Below are positions 57,647 through 64,000 of a stretch of DNA of 64,000 nucleotides, piece by piece. Below the pieces are notes generated by a model. That model did no database searches and was not told the DNA's origin. It saw nothing but the letters and a program-made list of their open reading frames with translations. How positions within the stretch are numbered: the first letter of the stretch is position 1; every line of letters starts with the position of its first letter. The position numbers were made by a program, and so were the translations under genes. The stretch spans positions 1-64,000 of the forward strand of contig CBDCXV010000010.1 of assembly GCA_965223905.1 (NCBI GenBank), read 5' to 3'. This DNA is from Candidatus Latescibacterota bacterium (lineage in GTDB: Bacteria > Latescibacterota > UBA2968 > UBA8231).

Positions 57647-58804
57647 ATGAATCCAATCCTGCTACTGCTCATTATCCCGGTCGTTGCTGTCTCCGGGCAA
57701 GTTCATGAACCCGACCCGGGATGGCCGGTCTTCGCTCCCGATTCCAACCCCGACAGTCTCAACGTGGAACGGGTCGGCGAGATCGTGCTTCTCCCTACTC
57801 CGGAAGCCGGCGACGTAGGGTATGGAGCCGATTTCTATGTCTCCGGAAACCATGCCCTAATGTGCGACGTGCGCCGTTTTGTCCATGTCGTCGACATTTC
57901 CGACCCGGCCAATATGCGCAAAGTGGCCGAGGTCCAGACTCCGGGAGCGCCTCTGGACATCAAGATTTCCGGCAACCTGGCGGCGGTTGGAGTGCAGGAA
58001 ACCGATGACTTCGGTCTGCTCATCCTTGACCTGTCCGACCCGGCCAATCCCGTTGAATTATCCCGGCTGCACAAGGAAGGATGGGGCGGGATTCACAATC
58101 TGTTCGTTCACGGAGACCGCATTTACCTGGCCCACGCCGAAAGCTTGGGCATGACCATCGTGGACATTTCCGATCCGGCCAATCCGGTAATCTCGGGTTT
58201 CTGGAAGCACGATACCTTCAGCAACGTGATTCACGATGTATTCGTCCGGGATCATCTAGCCGTCGTCAGTGACTACGATTCCGGGCTGGTTCTTCTGGAC
58301 GTCAAGGACCCGGACAACCCCGAACTGTTGGCGTCTGTGTCCTTCATCGACGGCATGCACAGTGCCTGGGCGGAAGGCAACTACGTCTACTGTAACCAAG
58401 AGTTCGGCGGCTGGCACAAGGGGCTCAAGGTGGTCGATATTACGGACCCTCGTTCTCCGCAGAAGGTCCATGAGTTCGCCCCGGACTACCCGCCACCGAA
58501 TGAAGATATTCTCGGCTCTCACAACCCTTGGGCCCGGGACGGGCTGTTGTACTGGGCCTACTACGACGCCGGCCTGCGCGTCTTCGATCTCAGTAACCCG
58601 GCGCAGCCGGAAGAAGTCGGCTACCATACCTACCCCGGTTCCGCATGGAGCGTGCAGCCGCACGACGACGGCCTACTCTACGTCGCCGACAGCACGGTTG
58701 GCATTCAGGCGTACCGGTTCGACCGGTCCATCGGCGGCACTTCTACTGCCGTGAAGCCAGCCTCATGGGGCCGCGTAAAAACCTTGTTCAGAGACCGAAA
58801 CTGA
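57647..58804 (+). CDS. Secreted LVIVD-repeat beta-propeller protein
   Basis: Signal peptide, repeated 'VVDISDPANP', C-terminal 'TAVKPASWGRVK'. Confidence 0.88.
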   Translation: MNPILLLLIIPVVAVSGQVHEPDPGWPVFAPDSNPDSLNVERVGEIVLLPTPEAGDVGYGADFYVSGNHALMCDVRRFVHVVDISDPANMRKVAEVQTPGAPLDIKISGNLAAVGVQETDDFGLLILDLSDPANPVELSRLHKEGWGGIHNLFVHGDRIYLAHAESLGMTIVDISDPANPVISGFWKHDTFSNVIHDVFVRDHLAVVSDYDSGLVLLDVKDPDNPELLASVSFIDGMHSAWAEGNYVYCNQEFGGWHKGLKVVDITDPRSPQKVHEFAPDYPPPNEDILGSHNPWARDGLLYWAYYDAGLRVFDLSNPAQPEEVGYHTYPGSAWSVQPHDDGLLYVADSTVGIQAYRFDRSIGGTSTAVKPASWGRVKTLFRDRN

Positions 58805-59083
58805 AACCCGATTGTACTTAACCTACTGCGGTAAACCTAAAAGAGAGGGACATCCATGAAAGCAACTATCGCCCCGGTAAGCCTCCGGCAGCCGCGCGGT
58901 CACCGTGTCCTCGGCTAGAGGGCCTCGAGAAAGGGGTGCCTTTCCTTCTCTGTGATGGTATTCACCTGACAGTTGTCCATTGTCGAGGACAACCCATTCT
59001 GCCACATAGTACCTTCGCTGTCCATTTCCGTCTTATATATGAAAAGGCTTTTGAGAACAGCCCACCGGGGGGACAAAAACAAC

Positions 59084-59479
59084 ATGTCGAGAATGCGAGA
59101 CTTGGAAATCCGCAGTGACGAAAAAGAGCCGGATGGGCGCGTCCACGCCTGCATGAAAGGATCGCCGCGCCCTCCGGAGGATCTGGATTTCGGCAAAAGG
59201 CCGGAGGTGCCGGCGAAACTCTGGAACCTCCTGGACGAGATTCCTCGGGAAAGTCGCCGGATCTTCGTTCTCTTCCATATCGAGGGAAGCTCCTGCGAGG
59301 AGATCGGGGGCTTTCTCGGGCTCGCCGAGGAGTTGGTGAGAGCGCATCTGTCGAAGGCGGAAGGCCACGTACTGCATCGCGCACCCTGGATCAAGCTGTC
59401 GGAACTGACCGTCAGCAAGGCGCGCCACCAGCGGCTAGTGCTGCAGATCATGGCTTCTCTGCGATCCCGGGCAGGTTGA
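59084..59479 (+). CDS. Stand-alone sigma-70 region 4 HTH protein
   Basis: 'LDEIPRESRRIFVLFHIEGSSCEEIGGFLGLAEELVRAHLSKA'; no region 2. Confidence 0.6.
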   Translation: MSRMRDLEIRSDEKEPDGRVHACMKGSPRPPEDLDFGKRPEVPAKLWNLLDEIPRESRRIFVLFHIEGSSCEEIGGFLGLAEELVRAHLSKAEGHVLHRAPWIKLSELTVSKARHQRLVLQIMASLRSRAG

Positions 59480-59659
59480 CGCCCCGGGAGAGGCAGTTGG
59501 GAAACGGCAGGATGAACAAAGAACCGCCGGAGTAGCGCAGGGACAGGCCCTGTCCCCGCTCAAGGTTGCCCCGACGGCGGGCCCTTTCTTCCTGAGGTGC
59601 CCACGCGGACGAGCGAGCCAGCAGCTTGTTCCCGGTTGGGTCCCTGTTCAACGTATTCG

Positions 59660-60295
59660 TCATATCCGGGGCAATCCGGGCAACGAAAAGGACCGCCCTC
59701 GAGGGGATCGGCCGAAATGGCAGGTTGGACGAACAGCGGAATCGGTCAACACTTGCCTCGTCCCCTTTTTCCTGGTCAAGCCGCCTTCAGGACGAACTTG
59801 GCCGAACGGGCTGATCTCTGTGCGGGCTATTTCATGCAGACCGAGTTGGTTTTGCCTCGGTACACGCGCCGGAACAACGGCCCCTCCTCGATTCGGGCCG
59901 CTTCCAGCCACGCCTTGATTCTCTCCACGGTGGGAGGACCCAAAAACAGCATGACCCCGACGCCTTCCTGGTCCGTCTTGGAGCGCCGCACGGTAGCCCG
60001 GCCGTCGCCTTCCGGCTCGAAGGAGACGTCTGAGACCTCGAGGTCGGCCAGCTCGGAGATGCGCAGCAGGCCGTCGGACATCACCGCGATGATCGCCGCA
60101 TCGCGCAGCCCGAAAAGAGAGCCGTCGCCGGCGGCGATGGCCGCCGCTGCGTCTGCCTGCGAGAAGTTCACGCCCTGGGCTTGGCCCCGCCCGCGGCCGC
60201 GGCCCTTGCGCCGGATACCGGCCAGCACGCGATCGGTGGCCGGCCCGGTCGGAGAAGGCTCCCCGTTCAGCTTGGCGCGGAACCGGATCGCCGGA
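59660..60295 (-). pseudogene. Degraded paralog of the tyrosine recombinase at 45243
   Basis: Shares 'RVLAGIRR.GRGRGRGQA.GVNF', 'GLRDAAII.VMSDGLLR' and 'SKTDQEG'; lacks the N-terminus and intact HxxR/Y motifs. Confidence 0.85.
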
Positions 60296-60473
60296 ACCGC
60301 CGCCGGGCGCCGACGCGGACGTGTGGTATTCGATCCCGGCGAACATACATCGCAAGGCATCCGAAGTGGCCCAAGTGCTCCTGGGGGCCCGGCCCAACAA
60401 ATAACGCGCAAGCTCATAGCCCCTTGCCAAAGGGGCAGGGTGTAGGATAGATTGAGCAGTTAATCGGAAAGGG

Positions 60474-60546
60474 ATGGGGGACGGGGACTTGCACCCGACA
60501 TCTCGGCCCTCAAAAGGCCGCGTCCTACTTGTTGGACCGCACCCCA
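60474..60546 (-). tRNA. Degenerate tRNA-Gln(UUG)-like element
   Basis: Cloverleaf: acceptor TGGGGTG/TCCCCCA (one mismatch), D stem GTCC/GGAC, anticodon arm CGGCC-TTTTGAG-GGCCG, T loop TGCAAGT with an imperfect stem; no CCA. Confidence 0.55.
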
Positions 60547-60575
60547 TTTCCTTTCGCCTTTAAGCCGCCGCAGCC

Positions 60576-60840
60576 CTATGGGTCTGTGGCGGCTTGCGTT
60601 TCTGGTAAGATGTACCGATTTGGATTCTTGGAGGCGACTTCCACGCGCCCAATCCTGACAAGATTAGATACGTAGGCGTGAAAATTGGCCTTGGGGGATT
60701 TCCCGCTGCAAATCAATCCCGAGGCTGAAAACCGTTCCCAAATCTGGCCGATGGTCTGTGGCTCGGTGGCTTCTTTCAGAATCGAAATGATGGCACCGAC
60801 AACTTCCGGCCCTTGGATCTCCTTTTGTTCGTTCTCATTG
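60576..60840 (-). CDS. Winged-helix protein or fragment (HARE-HTH-like)
   Basis: 'AIISILKEATEPQTIGQIWERF..SGKSPKANFHAYVS..PNRY'; start uncertain. Confidence 0.45.
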
Positions 60841-60843
60841 CCA

Positions 60844-61203
60844 ATGACTAGGCCAATACTTTCCGCCGTTTGCCTCGGGGCCTTGCTGGCGTCTGCCGGT
60901 TGCGACCGCGTACTCGGGTCGCGCCCCGAGCTGGTCAAGTTTATCCTGGCGGACGAAATCCGCTCGCCGGCCGGCGTCTACGTGCTATCGGATTCCCGTT
61001 TTGAAGCGGGTGTCGTGCGGGGCGTATTCCTTGAGGTTGCCCTTGACCAAAGGGACAGCAGCAGTATGCACACGCCGCTTGGGGAATGGGCTCGGCACAA
61101 GGGGTGGGGTTCGATCACGTGGGCCGTAGTACCGGGGGCCGTTTGGATCAATGACCGCCACGAAAGGCTGAAAGGGACCACCGTTTGGGTTGCCCTTGGA
61201 TAA
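60844..61203 (+). CDS. Hypothetical lipoprotein
   Basis: 'MTRPILSAVCLGALLASAGC' lipoprotein signal. Confidence 0.55.
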   Translation: MTRPILSAVCLGALLASAGCDRVLGSRPELVKFILADEIRSPAGVYVLSDSRFEAGVVRGVFLEVALDQRDSSSMHTPLGEWARHKGWGSITWAVVPGAVWINDRHERLKGTTVWVALG

Positions 61204-61293
61204 GCCCCCCGGGAAAGGGCCGATTTTCCGGGCGTGCCAAAATCAATATGAAGCCGAAAACCTGGCCGCCCTGCCGGTAAGACCGGAGAACCG

Positions 61294-61422
61294 CTGCAGC
61301 GCTACGTTGACGAGTTTGCGGGGAGGCACAACACCCGGCACCTCGACACCATTGATATGATGATCCGCACGGCAGCCGGCTTGGTAGGGAAGCGGCTGCG
61401 TTACCGGGATCTGACAGCATGA
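61294..61422 (+). pseudogene. IS1595-family transposase C-terminal remnant
   Basis: 'LQRYVDEFAGRHNTRHLDTIDMM..GLVGKRLRYRDLT'. Confidence 0.8.
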
Positions 61423-61810
61423 AAGAGGGGGTTGTCATCCACCATGATGTCCCTGCCTTGCGGTGCCTCGCACTGCCAAGCTGCACCTTGGCATGCCAAA
61501 CCGCGTGGTGCCCAGCCCCGATGTCAGGATGACAACCCTCATTCATTACACTAATGGTGGTCTCGGAATCATAACAGCTGTACAAACGGTCAGGACGATC
61601 TCACTTGCCTGCCATGCGGTCCACGATCGCTTGGTTGTGACCCCATGCGTAGGCCCCTTTTTCCCTATCACTTAGGTCGCCTGGGCATTGATCGGGCAGG
61701 ATGATGAACTGTGCTCCATTGCCGTCAGCCTCGTCGTATCCTCGGTTATAGACTTTGTCCATAACCCTTCTTTCCTTCAGCTTGTGCCTTGAGAAACCCA
61801 TGGGGAAAAC

Positions 61811-62428
61811 CTATTCGTCCAATCGGAGTTGCAGTCCCAGAAAGAACTTGGTGTAAAGCGACGTGCTTGAGTCGTAGGAGTATTCGAGAACGCCGTTCGG
61901 GTCGCTGATGAATAGCTCGTTCAACGACTCGGTAATGGTCAACGACGGCTGGTCATCCTCATCGAAAGTGGCGGCGAAGTCATCGAACGGCTGCCAATCC
62001 ACAGGCCCTTGACCAACACGCAAGCCGTAACCGACTAGCTTGTTGACGAACGCCCCTTGAAAGTTCGTGGTGATGTCCTCGTCGTAGTAAGCCCAGCCCT
62101 TGCGGCCTTCAATCCACTGGAGCTGATAGCTTCCGCTGGAAGACTTCAGATTAAACACCAGTTCCTGCCACTGGAAAGCACCGACAGACAGGGAACCTCC
62201 ATCGGAACCTACCTCGACGGTGTCGTAGACCGTGACGGTGTTGGTATCGGGGTTGTCGCCCTGGTAGACGACGTTTTCGCCGCTGATATTGATCACGACT
62301 TGGCAGCCGGTCGTATCAGCGGCTTGTTCGGCAGCGGCTGTTTTTGGTGAGCCAGCAGGTCCCATTGGCCCTTCTGGACCTTGGCAGGCGAGGAGCAACA
62401 GCAGTGAGGGTAAGGCGAGCAGGCGCAT
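61811..62428 (-). CDS. Hypothetical lipoprotein with a short collagen-like segment
   Basis: 'LLLLACQGPEGPMGPAG'; GGAGG RBS. Confidence 0.75.
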   Translation of the reverse strand: MRLLALPSLLLLLACQGPEGPMGPAGSPKTAAAEQAADTTGCQVVINISGENVVYQGDNPDTNTVTVYDTVEVGSDGGSLSVGAFQWQELVFNLKSSSGSYQLQWIEGRKGWAYYDEDITTNFQGAFVNKLVGYGLRVGQGPVDWQPFDDFAATFDEDDQPSLTITESLNELFISDPNGVLEYSYDSSTSLYTKFFLGLQLRLDE

Positions 62429-62704
62429 GTTCCGTCCTCCGTGAGATTGGTCTCATGGTGCGGCTCCCCTGCGGGAGCCGGGCCTACCAATCCATCACCG
62501 GATGACGGGACGGCCCACTTATTTGCCAAGACAAAAGGTAGCTAACCCCTTGCCTCCGTGGTACTTCGGCTGTTCTATTCAGCGGGAGACCCGACAACTA
62601 CGCGGGTTTCCGATGACAGATTGGTCCTATACTGGCTCTCAAGAAGAAAATGCGTATAATCGCAGTATTCTATTGACCATTGGAAGGAAAAGGACAATCT
62701 CCCC

Positions 62705-62733
62705 TTGACATTTTGTTCTTGTCTAAGTAAGTT
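62705..62733 (+). promoter_or_regulatory. Sigma-70 promoter
   Basis: TTGACA-17 bp-TAAGTT directly before the RNA repeats. Confidence 0.65.
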
Positions 62734-62737
62734 AAAG

Positions 62738-62858
62738 ACAACCACCCATGCCTCGTTGCATGGCCCCCATGGGTTTCGGCTCTTGGGGCAACGTACAGCC
62801 ACCCATACTGGCTTGCCAGTATGGCCCCCAGGGGTTTCGGCCCCTGGGGTATTTTTTT
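62738..62858 (+). ncRNA. Candidate structured RNA: two tandem units, each with two hairpins, ending in a terminator-like T-tract
   Basis: Units 62738-62794 and 62795-62858 share ACA(A/G)CCACCCAT..ATGGCCCCCA.GGGTTTCGGC.C.TGGGG; stems are kept despite sequence change; T7 follows unit 2. Confidence 0.6.
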
Positions 62859-62873
62859 GACAGGGGCTCCAGT

Positions 62874-63539
62874 TTGGATACGGGGAAAACGGAGAAGAAA
62901 AAGAAAAAGACGGAGAAGAAAAAGAAAGTTGACGTATTCATTGATGGGTTCAACCTCTATCACGCTATAGACAATCTGAATAAACCTCATCTCAAATGGG
63001 TTGATCTTTGGAAGTTGTCAGAGTGTTTTATATCAAAGAAAACACATAAAATAGGAAGAGTTTTTTATTTCACATCTATGGCCAGATGGAAACCTTGTTC
63101 GCATAAAAGGCAAGAGGCATTTTTGGATGCTATACACTCTAAAGGAGTCGAAGTTTGGTACGGAAGGTTTCAGAGGAAACCCTTACAGTGTGATAAATGC
63201 AAGTACAAGTGGTTCACCTGGACAGAGAAACAGACCGATGTTAATATTGCCTCGTTTCTTGTCGGACGTGCGGCATTGAATAAATTCGACTCAGCTATTT
63301 TTATTTCTCAAGATTCTGATTTCGTCGTTGCTATTAGAACGATGGGTCATTTCAAAAAACCAATTAAAATTGTTACGCCACCTCGAAGAAAACATAGCAC
63401 AGAGCTTGTAAATGCCGCATCGGGAAACAAGGGGAAAATAATAATTCCTCAACTTGAGAATTGTCAGCTTGAAACCGTAGTCAAAGACAGCGATGGGAAT
63501 ACTATTGCAGTACGTCCACCAGAATACATGCCACCTTAA
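62874..63539 (+). CDS. NYN/LabA (PIN-fold) domain protein, putative ribonuclease
   Basis: 'VFIDGFNLYH', 'EKQTDVNIA', 'SQDSDF'; AT-rich; TTG start at 62874 is assumed. Confidence 0.9.
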   Translation: MDTGKTEKKKKKTEKKKKVDVFIDGFNLYHAIDNLNKPHLKWVDLWKLSECFISKKTHKIGRVFYFTSMARWKPCSHKRQEAFLDAIHSKGVEVWYGRFQRKPLQCDKCKYKWFTWTEKQTDVNIASFLVGRAALNKFDSAIFISQDSDFVVAIRTMGHFKKPIKIVTPPRRKHSTELVNAASGNKGKIIIPQLENCQLETVVKDSDGNTIAVRPPEYMPP

Positions 63540-63555
63540 GCATAGGAGAAGGGAA

Positions 63556-63714
63556 ATGGCTAAGAAGCAAAGCTCAGATGATGTGTCCTCTTTGGCAGGA
63601 CGTGTATTAGCTGGAAAGAGGCCCACTCCCAAAGAAGCCAGAAAGTTAGCTGGTTCTGTATTGTCTCAAGATGAGAATAAAGGAAAGAGAGGATCTTCTA
63701 GAAAGAAGAGATAG
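63556..63714 (+). CDS. Small basic hypothetical protein
   Basis: 'MAKKQSSDDVSSLAGRVL..KLAGSVLSQ' after a purine-rich RBS. Confidence 0.6.
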   Translation: MAKKQSSDDVSSLAGRVLAGKRPTPKEARKLAGSVLSQDENKGKRGSSRKKR

Positions 63715-63724
63715 GCAGTTTGAA

Positions 63725-63889
63725 ATGAGACTTTTGGACCGCTTACTGAGGCGCAGGCCCGCTGAGCCTGACTATACGGACATGCATGAGCCGATCCCCG
63801 ATACGCCTGAGAACATCGCTCGGGCGCTTCTGATGAGCCCGCCAGAAGATGACTGGGTTGAGGAAGAGGTTGATGGAGACCCCCCGTGA
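63725..63889 (+). CDS. Small hypothetical protein ('IPDTPENIARAL')
   Basis: Short ORF downstream of the small basic protein. Confidence 0.45.
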   Translation: MRLLDRLLRRRPAEPDYTDMHEPIPDTPENIARALLMSPPEDDWVEEEVDGDPP

Positions 63890-64000
63890 AGCCTTGGTAA
63901 ATTGCGTCTGCATTATCAGGCTGATGAGGGAAAAAGGGCTTGGTTATGGGGAAGCCTGCGAAGAGGTTAGAAGGAGAGATCCCAAGGGCCGTGTATTAGG

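Follow-up and report, generated by a model that had tools for sequence, protein, structure and literature searches.

A short structured RNA gene and the gene for an NYN-domain nuclease that lies directly downstream of it in the window (the whole 64-kb stretch of DNA analysed here) very probably form a real module. It looks like an undescribed RNA-plus-nuclease toxin–antitoxin or phage-defence module. Sequence comparisons show that the RNA has a conserved structure, that it is linked exclusively to NYN genes, that this linkage occurs in either orientation, and that the RNA gene carries its own transcription signals. The best overall reading, to which we give about an even chance, is that of a type III-like module on mobile DNA, with the RNA as the candidate antitoxin and the NYN protein as the candidate toxin.

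An earlier, sequence-only reading of this DNA had proposed a promoter-like TTGACA-17-TAAGTT site followed by two RNA units, each with hairpins A and B, and a T-run. We find all of these elements in the places where it put them (Table 1). The −35 element is perfect and the −10 TAAGTT matches TATAAT at 3/6 positions, which is why the site is omitted from a consensus promoter scan. The distance from the end of the −10 element to stem A is 13 nt, the modal spacing of the family, and the promoter-like site predicts an RNA start at ~62740; the transcript ends given for the window RNA are all predictions. The two units form a direct repeat with a 61-nt period and 71% identity over 56 nt, and the window version is a two-unit RNA of ~120 nt. 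Hairpin A varies in sequence between the units and retains its pairing, as had been described, and the single-stranded tails read ACAACCAC and ACAGCCAC (the family consensus is close to AUCAUCC). The terminator stem of unit 2 has 10 pairs, 8 of them G-C, and a 4-nt loop. The NYN gene had been placed within 16 nt of this terminator, and its TTG start is indeed in frame 15 nt past the T-run; in homologues the Shine-Dalgarno sequence and the start are located at the same place, directly after the T-run.

Table 1. Positions of the RNA locus and the NYN gene in the window
Feature	Position	Strand	Description or basis
Promoter-like site	62705..62733	+	−35 TTGACA 62705-62710, 17-nt spacer, −10 TAAGTT 62728-62733
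RNA unit 1	62738..62789	+	Fold and direct repeat D1; without T-run
Unit 1 tail	62738-62745	+	C-rich, single-stranded
Unit 1 hairpin A	62746-62763	+	
Unit 1 hairpin B	62765-62788	+	
RNA unit 2	62795..62858	+	Fold, repeat, terminator call, family model
Unit 2 tail	62795-62802	+	
Unit 2 hairpin A	62803-62824	+	
Unit 2 hairpin B	62826-62849	+	Intrinsic terminator
Unit 2 T-run	62850-62858	+	TA plus T7
Shine-Dalgarno-like AGGGG	62862..62866	+	7 nt before TTG start
NYN-domain nuclease gene	62874..63539	+	221 aa, start TTG 62874; Pfam, PADLOC, fold

The local fold of the window RNA region (−63.8 kcal/mol, z −1.84) is weak evidence when taken alone, with 8/200 shuffled sequences folding equally well, and its significance comes from comparison with relatives. 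When 54 upstream regions were aligned with MAFFT, pairing was present in 86.3% of cells compared with 67.8% in shuffles. Compensatory double changes occur at 15/15 base pairs and the covariation score is reached by 0/500 shuffles. Slid partners pair at only 38–48%, and a model-fitted alignment of 65 sequences is 89% paired. The family RNA is ~55–60 nt long and is composed of a C-rich 5′ tail, the covarying hairpin A, a short purine linker, and a hairpin B that doubles as the terminator, the stem of which is part of the family covariance model. Variation in the RNA is limited to the compensated stems and small loops, and the sequence of the tail and linker is conserved across phyla.

A covariance model built from homologous loci only, with the window left out (R1), identifies unit 2 with a score of 39.3 bits (E = 3e-7 in a search over the 64-kb window). 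The corresponding score in a genome-wide search is 47.5 bits for model R2, the training alignment of which (A4) contains window unit 2. Unit 1 gives only a weak match to the family model, scoring 8.8 bits (E = 0.024 when 251 nt were searched). No Rfam 15 family reaches threshold in window positions 58000-64000 (best score 18.8 bits, gathering score 70) or in the motif region of locus L014 (best 16.1 bits, gathering score 45), and 16 homologous loci contain nothing above threshold beyond tRNA and 5S rRNA. Even with filters off, R1 and R2 miss the motif in L063, L066, L073, L078, L085, L086 and the plasmid loci; its presence in the model-missed subfamilies (L063, L066, L078, L085, L086 and the plasmid form) was assigned by a descriptor scan, the background rate of which is 5%, or by eye. 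L040, which is very similar to L063 and L066, scores 27.6 bits, and the latter two are unmatched by the model.

Of the 78 loci with upstream DNA, 67 have a match to the RNA model at E ≤ 0.01 that adjoins the NYN gene. The seed alignment of the model contained 54 of these loci; independent matches are provided by window unit 2, by 30/53 viral-contig loci and by loci of relatives. In 6/6 whole genomes (the window's own and five others) the sole match at E ≤ 0.01 adjoins the NYN gene, and there were no RNA matches in 47 NYN-negative relatives. The RNA–NYN pairing is present in relatives from many bacterial phyla, and the window's own genome yielded no second copy of the RNA or of the NYN gene. 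We found no conserved protein neighbour of at least 60 aa, and no conserved small ORF, next to the NYN loci, in agreement with the earlier statement that an adjacent upstream protein antitoxin is lacking. Homologues of two small downstream ORFs were likewise not found. A divergent HTH gene on the enterobacterial plasmids was considered as a partner and rejected because it encodes a DnaD_N/HTH_36 replication-type protein.

A promoter-like site scoring at least 9/12 precedes the motif in 30/65 loci, compared with 11/650 control segments, and in 22 of those 30 loci the end of the −10 element lies 12–14 nt from stem A. The motif is co-oriented with the NYN gene in ~90% of loci, with the terminator abutting the NYN ribosome-binding site. 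Promoter, RNA, terminator and nuclease gene is the family norm, and to this extent the ToxIN-like layout proposed by the sequence-only reading stands. Its other element, tandem repetition, is not a family trait: one RNA unit is normal, and a clear tandem copy is found in only 1 of 74 loci, that of the window (z 17.4; next best 3.0). Additional copies of the RNA are present in the window, in L083 (two units within one model match), in L104 (two complete RNA genes), and in L045 and L028. In most loci the NYN gene starts 8–17 nt past the T-run, which leaves no room for a separate NYN promoter. Divergent copies of the RNA come with a 10/12 promoter and a terminator of their own, and they lie at about five separate places on a quick tree of the NYN proteins. 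The RNA of L101 is ~95 nt from the NYN start and, like the two RNA genes of L104, is set apart from that start and so cannot belong to the NYN mRNA. In two divergent loci, L016 and L019, the NYN start and the promoter of the RNA overlap, so that the two transcripts could do so as well. An RNA that has its own promoter and terminator, and that is divergent in several NYN lineages, points to a partner that acts in trans, beyond the role of a leader.

The window protein matches Pfam PF01936 (46 bits, with the cut-off at 24.2; E = 9.7e-12; profile positions 1–139 of 145) and the PADLOC HEC-09 model PDLC04163 (E = 2.7e-45, 152.5 bits, profile positions 2–197 of 203). It matches no other Pfam or PADLOC family and does not group with ToxN, CptN or TenpN. 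An AlphaFold2 model of the protein (mean pLDDT 93.4) has as its best PDB folds 2qip (E = 1e-8) and the MARF1 NYN domain (5yaa, 6fdl). Residues D24, D122, D147 and D149 are invariant across 26 sequences, and the acidic motifs are thus intact as had been noted. On the basis of the fold and the invariant aspartates, the protein is predicted to be a metal-dependent ribonuclease. A 21-nt tandem duplication (D2, 62886-62927) gives the window protein a Lys/Glu-rich N-terminal extension.

The available text of the preprint that introduced HEC-09 describes a MARF1-like NYN RNase that is embedded in defence systems and is a single-protein candidate (bioRxiv 10.1101/2024.01.29.577857). In the only published test of this protein family, HEC-09 was cloned there with ~150 bp of upstream DNA and gave no protection from the phages tried, and in the same text only HEC-03 and HEC-04 are called apparently toxic (bioRxiv 10.1101/2024.01.29.577857). 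The null result fits an intact RNA-neutralised module and would be equally expected of a harmless gene. The NYN proteins of PF01936 in bacteria run into the thousands. A 2017 survey of the PIN-like superfamily, in the portion available, recorded none that had been studied as a nuclease (PMC5499597). Defence catalogues list HEC-09 as a lone gene with activity not shown there, and a conserved RNA partner changes how the HEC-09/NYN family should be annotated, cloned and tested.

The NYN gene of the window is a low-GC islet (0.38–0.46, compared with 0.55–0.76 around it) and a search of 36 genomes from the family to which the window's genome belongs did not find it. Together these observations indicate horizontal acquisition, which had previously been suggested from the low GC. 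Neighbours of the islet include an integrase fragment, an ISL3 transposase and Toprim/AAA_25 genes, the larger neighbours having been scanned against Pfam only. NYN loci are also found on predicted viral contigs, and the phylogeny of the NYN proteins (a quick tree) conflicts with taxonomy. Two loci sit inside a single defence system: L014, which is between mad3 and mad1, and L075, which is between the S and R subunits of a Type I system. PADLOC matches at E ≤ 1e-10 were obtained for 15/144 nearest neighbours, in 13/76 loci, in a baseline-free count that includes some generic families. The NYN gene is the sole cargo of enterobacterial plasmids of 3.5–4.3 kb, including 3.5-kb E. coli plasmids, and the latter offer a compact two-part form that is directly testable. 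The plasmid form of the RNA has three hairpins.

In the ToxIN, CptIN and TenpIN systems a promoter, a non-coding RNA and an intrinsic terminator precede an endoribonuclease gene, there is no protein antitoxin, and the systems reside on plasmids, prophages and islands. The NYN module has the same gene order, lacks a protein antitoxin, has a mobile location, and possesses an intrinsic terminator between the RNA and the nuclease gene (62826-62858 in the window). However, its nuclease has an NYN/PIN-like, predicted metal-dependent fold in place of the ToxN-type fold, and to our knowledge an NYN toxin would be unlike every classical type III toxin in this respect. In addition, there is normally one two-hairpin unit in place of 2–5 tandem pseudoknot repeats, and in some loci the RNA gene and the nuclease gene point away from each other.

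A mechanism like that of a type III toxin–antitoxin or abortive-infection system has, in our estimation, slightly less than an even chance of being correct. Abundant RNA would bind the NYN protein directly and hold the nuclease inactive, perhaps with its single-stranded tail at the active site or close to it. In the co-oriented layout, terminator read-through would be the only source of NYN mRNA, and the RNA would thereby stay in excess; the additional unit of the window and the duplicated RNA genes of a few relatives would raise the RNA dose. If transcription stopped, for example because a phage had infected the cell or the element had been lost, the RNA, being labile, would decay and the freed NYN protein would cut cellular and phage RNA.

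The RNA could alternatively be a positive partner, acting as a scaffold, activator, specificity subunit or dedicated substrate of a housekeeping-like or defence NYN ribonucleoprotein. We regard this as unlikely, although the exclusive linkage in either orientation and the conserved unpaired nucleotides fit it equally, and the available text on cloned HEC-09 reports no toxicity. A role as a guide is disfavoured by the lack of a variable single-stranded segment in the RNA, and a nuclease limited by read-through, combined with duplications of the RNA only, better fits an inhibitor in excess. It is rather improbable that the RNA is an obligate subunit and sensor of an NYN ribonucleoprotein immune effector, in which the tail and hairpins would switch the nuclease on or off at a phage cue (RNA cleavage, modification or displacement). 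Similarly improbable is a cis-acting leader or attenuator in which a strong promoter and a terminator throttle NYN expression, perhaps with autoregulation by NYN, leaving the free RNA without a function. The co-orientation of most loci, with the terminator next to the NYN ribosome-binding site, is the arrangement expected of such an attenuator. However, it does not account for divergent RNA genes that have their own promoter and terminator and show compensatory changes in several NYN lineages, or for the L101 RNA and both L104 RNA genes, which are outside the NYN mRNA; nor would a plain attenuator need a tail and linker with sequence conserved across phyla.

The C/U-rich tail and the G-rich NYN sites, together with the possible antisense overlap in L016 and L019, would suit an RNA that base-pairs with the NYN ribosome-binding site or 5′ region in a type I-like, anti-Shine-Dalgarno mode of translational repression. 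This is very unlikely, as predicted duplexes between the tail and downstream sequence (mean −4.68 kcal/mol in 62 loci) are no more stable than those of cross-locus pairs (−4.75) or those formed by shuffled tails (−4.67), with a permutation p of 0.63. Furthermore, co-oriented RNAs are sense to the mRNA, and the L101 and L104 RNAs are clear of the NYN mRNA start. The sequence-only reading had itself raised the possibility that the region is the N-terminus of a longer NYN protein translated from the ATG at 62748, and the frame from 62748 is indeed open. Both this and the idea that the hairpins are there by chance, which the modest local z-score might suggest, are barely tenable: homologues are ~207–236 aa long and start just after the T-run, the PF01936 domain begins only at residue 60 of the long (263-aa) ORF, and the RNA is conserved at the level of its base pairs, every one of them compensated. 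Gene callers merge the RNA into the over-long ORF, as in the 263-aa form in the protein database (P0001).

The preferred reading of the RNA as an antitoxin has counterparts outside the classical type III systems. In Clostridioides difficile, the available text on AbiF/RCd22 reports that an upstream motif RNA neutralises the toxin in cis and in trans through direct binding (bioRxiv 10.1101/2025.04.15.648962). Both that system and the NYN module pair one effector gene with a conserved RNA motif that lies upstream of it, and both were first found by comparative genomics. However, as far as that text goes, the AbiF protein is of the Abi_2/AbiD/F type with Cas13-like links, and its RNA motif differs from that of the NYN family. 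In AvcID, a single non-repeated sRNA antitoxin binds the protein toxin and is lost once host transcription stops, according to the portion of the report available (PMC10511110). The NYN module resembles AvcID in normally having a single non-repeated RNA, for which an antitoxin role is proposed here, but AvcID has a deoxycytidylate deaminase as its toxin and an RNA of ~171–300 nt and, in that portion of the report, no terminator is predicted before the toxin gene (PMC10511110). If the preferred reading is correct, an NYN-fold toxin and a new class of RNA would join the small set of RNA-antitoxin systems. HEC-09 as published is the same protein family and appears in the available text without an RNA partner, the word 'non-coding' being absent from it. 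The literature searched, to the extent of its available text, contains neither an RNA partner for HEC-09 nor an NYN–antitoxin pair of this kind, and we found no mention of NYN in the ncRNA-discovery literature searched. HEC-09 is otherwise named in surveys of defence systems and of plasmids.

We examined the window locus by folding, repeat analysis and scans for transcription signals. The layout that the sequence-only reading had proposed, with a promoter, two RNA units, a terminator and an NYN gene, is borne out in both order and position (see table). The promoter was missing from the list produced by a consensus scan because its -10 element, TAAGTT, agrees with the consensus at just 3 of 6 positions. 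The two units form a direct repeat with a 61-nt period and 71% identity across 56 nt, and each folds as a C-rich single-stranded tail followed by two hairpins. The terminator scan picks hairpin B of unit 2 (10 pairs, of which 8 are G-C, around a 4-nt loop), and the transcript ends are predicted from such signals. Over the 156-nt stretch the fold z-score is -1.84, with 8 of 200 shuffles equally stable. The window by itself is insufficient to tell RNA structure from chance.

Features of the RNA-NYN locus and its surroundings in the window
Feature	Coordinates	Strand	Description and basis
Promoter-like site	TTGACA 62705-62710; TAAGTT 62728-62733	+	17-nt spacer; read from sequence
Unit 1	tail 62738-62745; hairpin A 62746-62763; hairpin B 62765-62788	+	folding
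Unit 2	tail 62795-62802; hairpin A 62803-62824; hairpin B 62826-62849	+	folding
T-run of unit 2	62850-62858	+	TA and seven T; sequence
NYN gene	62874-63539	+	TTG start, 221 aa
Partial phage-integrase match	59827-60417	-	PF00589, 27.6 bits, profile positions 18-86 of 172

The open frame from ATG 62748 to 63539 encodes 263 residues, the form entered in the protein database (P0001), and because this frame runs through both RNA units its start is likely an over-call. Translation of the RNA region from this ATG, an alternative that the sequence-only reading had itself raised, is disfavoured by the Pfam NYN domain (PF01936; 46 bits, cut-off 24.2), whose match begins only at residue 60, and by the length of the homologues, mostly about 207-236 aa. 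Out of 564 candidates, a protein search yielded 365 proteins with E <= 0.001, the closest non-self proteins being 45-48% identical, and aligned homologues begin about 5-10 residues ahead of an invariant DGFNLYH motif. Past the terminator the frame offers a single start, TTG 62874, which the T-run precedes by 15 nt and AGGGG by 7 nt. In most homologous loci the nearest NYN start lies 8-17 nt past the T-run, and we therefore read the window gene from this TTG. A 21-nt tandem duplication (62886-62927, 95% identical) codes for a Lys/Glu-rich N-terminal extension that is absent from the aligned homologues. The AlphaFold2 model of the protein has a mean pLDDT of 93.4, with NYN proteins 2qip and MARF1 as its best PDB matches. 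D24, D122, D147 and D149 are invariant across 26 aligned sequences, and the nuclease is apparently active.

We extended the analysis to NYN relatives, scanned in one genome per species (546 among 589 matched stretches), keeping 80 loci and reading 260 nt 5' of NYN in each. The upstream order is near-universal: promoter-like site, C-rich tail, hairpin A, short purine linker, hairpin B, ribosome-binding site and NYN start, with hairpin B being G+C-rich, closed by a UNCG-type loop and followed by a T-run. For 54 upstream regions, selected by simple terminator finding and visual inspection and omitting the window, a structure-blind MAFFT alignment has 86.3% of cells paired compared with 67.8% in shuffles. 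Double changes occur at all 15 of 15 pairs, the covariation score was reached by 0 of 500 shuffles, and sliding the partners by 1-3 columns lowers pairing to 38-48%. The structure is shared among NYN homologues. In a model-fitted alignment of 65 sequences 89% of cells pair, a figure that favours the model by construction. Searches with Rfam 15 gave no family for the RNA in window positions 58000-64000, in 16 homologous loci (where only tRNA and 5S rRNA reached threshold) or in the motif region of locus L014.

A covariance model built from the 54-region alignment (R1) has a sole match in the 64 kb, the window's unit 2 (39.3 bits, E 3e-7), whereas a local search run with filters off brings unit 1 to just 8.8 bits. 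Across the 80 loci R1 gives 68 matches at E <= 0.01 in 67 loci, all of which have a match adjoining an NYN ORF; discounting two loci whose upstream stretch is too short, this makes 67 of 78. Because 54 loci served as seed, we counted independent support separately. It comes from the window, from 13 loci outside the seed at E <= 0.01, from loci in relatives of the window's genome, and from viral-contig loci in an unrelated collection, where 30 of 53, including several near-duplicates, match at the same threshold (8 of 61 loci with weak or partial protein matches having been dropped). In five whole genomes of 2.1-5.9 Mb and in the window's own 7.9-Mb genome, the only RNA match at E <= 0.01 is the one beside NYN. 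The NYN family is carried by 14 of 61 related genomes. At E <= 0.01 a second model whose training alignment includes window unit 2 (R2) matches none of the 47 NYN-negative genomes and two of the NYN-positive ones (G000 and G057), each directly upstream of NYN; the other 12 fall below the genome-wide threshold, and most of the loci examined there carry a divergent RNA form. The models also miss, with filters off, motif copies at L063 2072-2146 and L066 2900-2974; the very similar L040 scores 27.6 bits.

The claimed absence of an adjacent protein antitoxin holds in that clustering of all ORFs of at least 60 aa across the 80 loci gave no conserved protein neighbour. The largest non-NYN cluster, and the only one in more than three loci, is an IS1595 transposase (4 loci), and two small ORFs downstream of the window NYN have no counterparts elsewhere.

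The RNA could be simply a leader of the NYN mRNA. However, promoter-like sites scoring at least 9/12 lie within 48 nt ahead of the motif in 30 of 65 cases compared with 11 of 650 control segments, and in 22 of these 30 the -10 ends 12-14 nt before stem A (13 nt in the window). R1 matches on the strand opposite to NYN occur in L016 (37.3 bits), L019 (34.9 bits) and L036 (54.5 bits), all with a terminator and the first two with a 10/12 promoter. A descriptor scan, with a background of 42 of 800 control strand-segments, finds 65 loci co-oriented, 5 divergent (L031 ambiguous) and 8 without a match; L085 and L086 look divergent as judged by eye only. In a sister family from the window's class (L101 to L105), a divergent RNA with stems compensated between genomes lies about 100-160 nt from the NYN motif, and L104 has two complete RNA genes about 205 nt apart (2142-2446), each with a -35/-10 site and a terminator and both divergent from NYN. 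In a quick tree, many of whose forks are weak, the divergent loci are scattered over about five places between co-oriented loci. The linkage is kept through repeated inversions and in some loci outside the NYN mRNA, and the RNA is therefore not merely a leader; on this comparative evidence, we take it that the RNA is a gene of its own. An IS1595-type transposase lies near the divergent-RNA loci L016 (Pfam-confirmed), L036 and L078 (both by clustering).

The window NYN gene is a low-GC islet (GC 0.38-0.46 compared with 0.55-0.76 in its surroundings), in a region containing an integrase fragment, an ISL3 transposase and Toprim/AAA_25 genes. The integrase match sits among overlapping long ORFs on both strands and is probably a remnant marking an island edge. 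A search of 36 other genomes from the window's taxonomic family did not find the NYN family, and a quick NYN tree is at odds with taxonomy. Near-identical loci occur in a Gemmatimonadaceae MAG and a Latescibacterota MAG (L009 and L010), and identical or near-identical ones in MAGs assigned to Methylocystis and Rhodobacter (L063 and L066); both pairs point to recent transfer or binning cross-assignment. Of 144 nearest neighbours contributed by 76 loci, 15 match PADLOC models, spread over 13 loci; this is a raw count, and some of the matches are to generic families. The NYN gene lies between two MADS genes in L014, while in L075 it is flanked by Type I restriction S and R subunits. Rfam tRNA genes lie within 3 kb of the module in L014, L024, L026 and L040, consistent with insertion at tRNA-linked integration hot spots.

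The window protein matches the PADLOC candidate defence family HEC-09 (E 2.7e-45), described in its source preprint as a MARF1-like NYN candidate embedded in Hma defence systems. There, HEC-09 was cloned together with, where possible, about 150 bp of the DNA upstream, and the clone did not protect against any of the phages tried; in the passages available, toxicity comes up solely for HEC-03 and HEC-04 and an RNA partner not at all (bioRxiv 10.1101/2024.01.29.577857). HEC-09 is also named in three other defence-system or plasmid surveys, and according to a 2017 survey of PIN-like domains no PF01936 protein had yet been studied as a nuclease (PMC5499597). Our searches of open-access papers and bioRxiv turned up no description of an NYN-partnered RNA. 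The predicted RNA-NYN module is widespread and was not found described in Rfam 15 or the literature searched.

These data show that a small structured RNA, equipped with transcription signals of its own, is exclusively and persistently linked to an NYN nuclease that is apparently active and lies on mobile DNA. A toxin-antitoxin or defence function is the best-fitting candidate. On that model the RNA would, like the RNAs of type III systems, bind the nuclease directly and neutralise it, read-through of the terminator would restrict nuclease synthesis, and continuous RNA production would be required. The closest worked example is AbiF/RCd22, in which an upstream motif RNA binds the toxin and acts in cis and in trans (bioRxiv 10.1101/2025.04.15.648962); in AvcID, a single unrepeated sRNA serves as a type III antitoxin (PMC10511110). 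The same linkage could also arise if the RNA were an activating or scaffolding subunit of NYN, which we consider rather unlikely. Pairing of the tail with the ribosome-binding site was unsupported (p = 0.63).

On the neutralisation model, duplicated RNA copies would increase RNA dose. The tandem repetition that the sequence-only reading took as a trait of the system is instead, in clear form, peculiar to the window (z 17.4; next best 3.0 among 74 loci tested). Elsewhere, L083 has two units within one model match, L045 a partly decayed second RNA gene 320 nt upstream, and L028 a nearly identical second copy (2361-2435) 2 kb downstream of NYN and directly before a Bro-N domain protein of 461 aa; genes other than NYN may sometimes follow the RNA. 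In L072 (2998-4144) the NYN gene itself is in tandem, the first copy behind a degenerate motif and the second truncated and preceded by a strong model match (56 bits).

An NYN gene sharing 32-34% identity with that of the window is found on enterobacterial plasmids of 3.5-4.3 kb. Besides NYN, their annotation lists one or two HTH proteins and, in some plasmids, Rop or MobA. Two plasmids were tested, and in both the HTH protein adjoining NYN is a DnaD_N/HTH_36 replication-type protein. All these other genes are of maintenance type, leaving NYN as the only apparent cargo. Upstream of NYN lies a three-hairpin form that keeps the UUCUUCC-type tail and hairpin A, has a further hairpin ahead of its terminator, and leads into the ribosome-binding site. 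R1 and R2 give no match to it, so its homology rests on layout and reading by eye. The plasmid form is present in 12 of 5,426 complete E. coli genomes, where the annotation marks the coding sequence alone. It folds with z-scores of -6.7 to -8.5, and each of its three stems shows compensatory changes from plasmid to plasmid.
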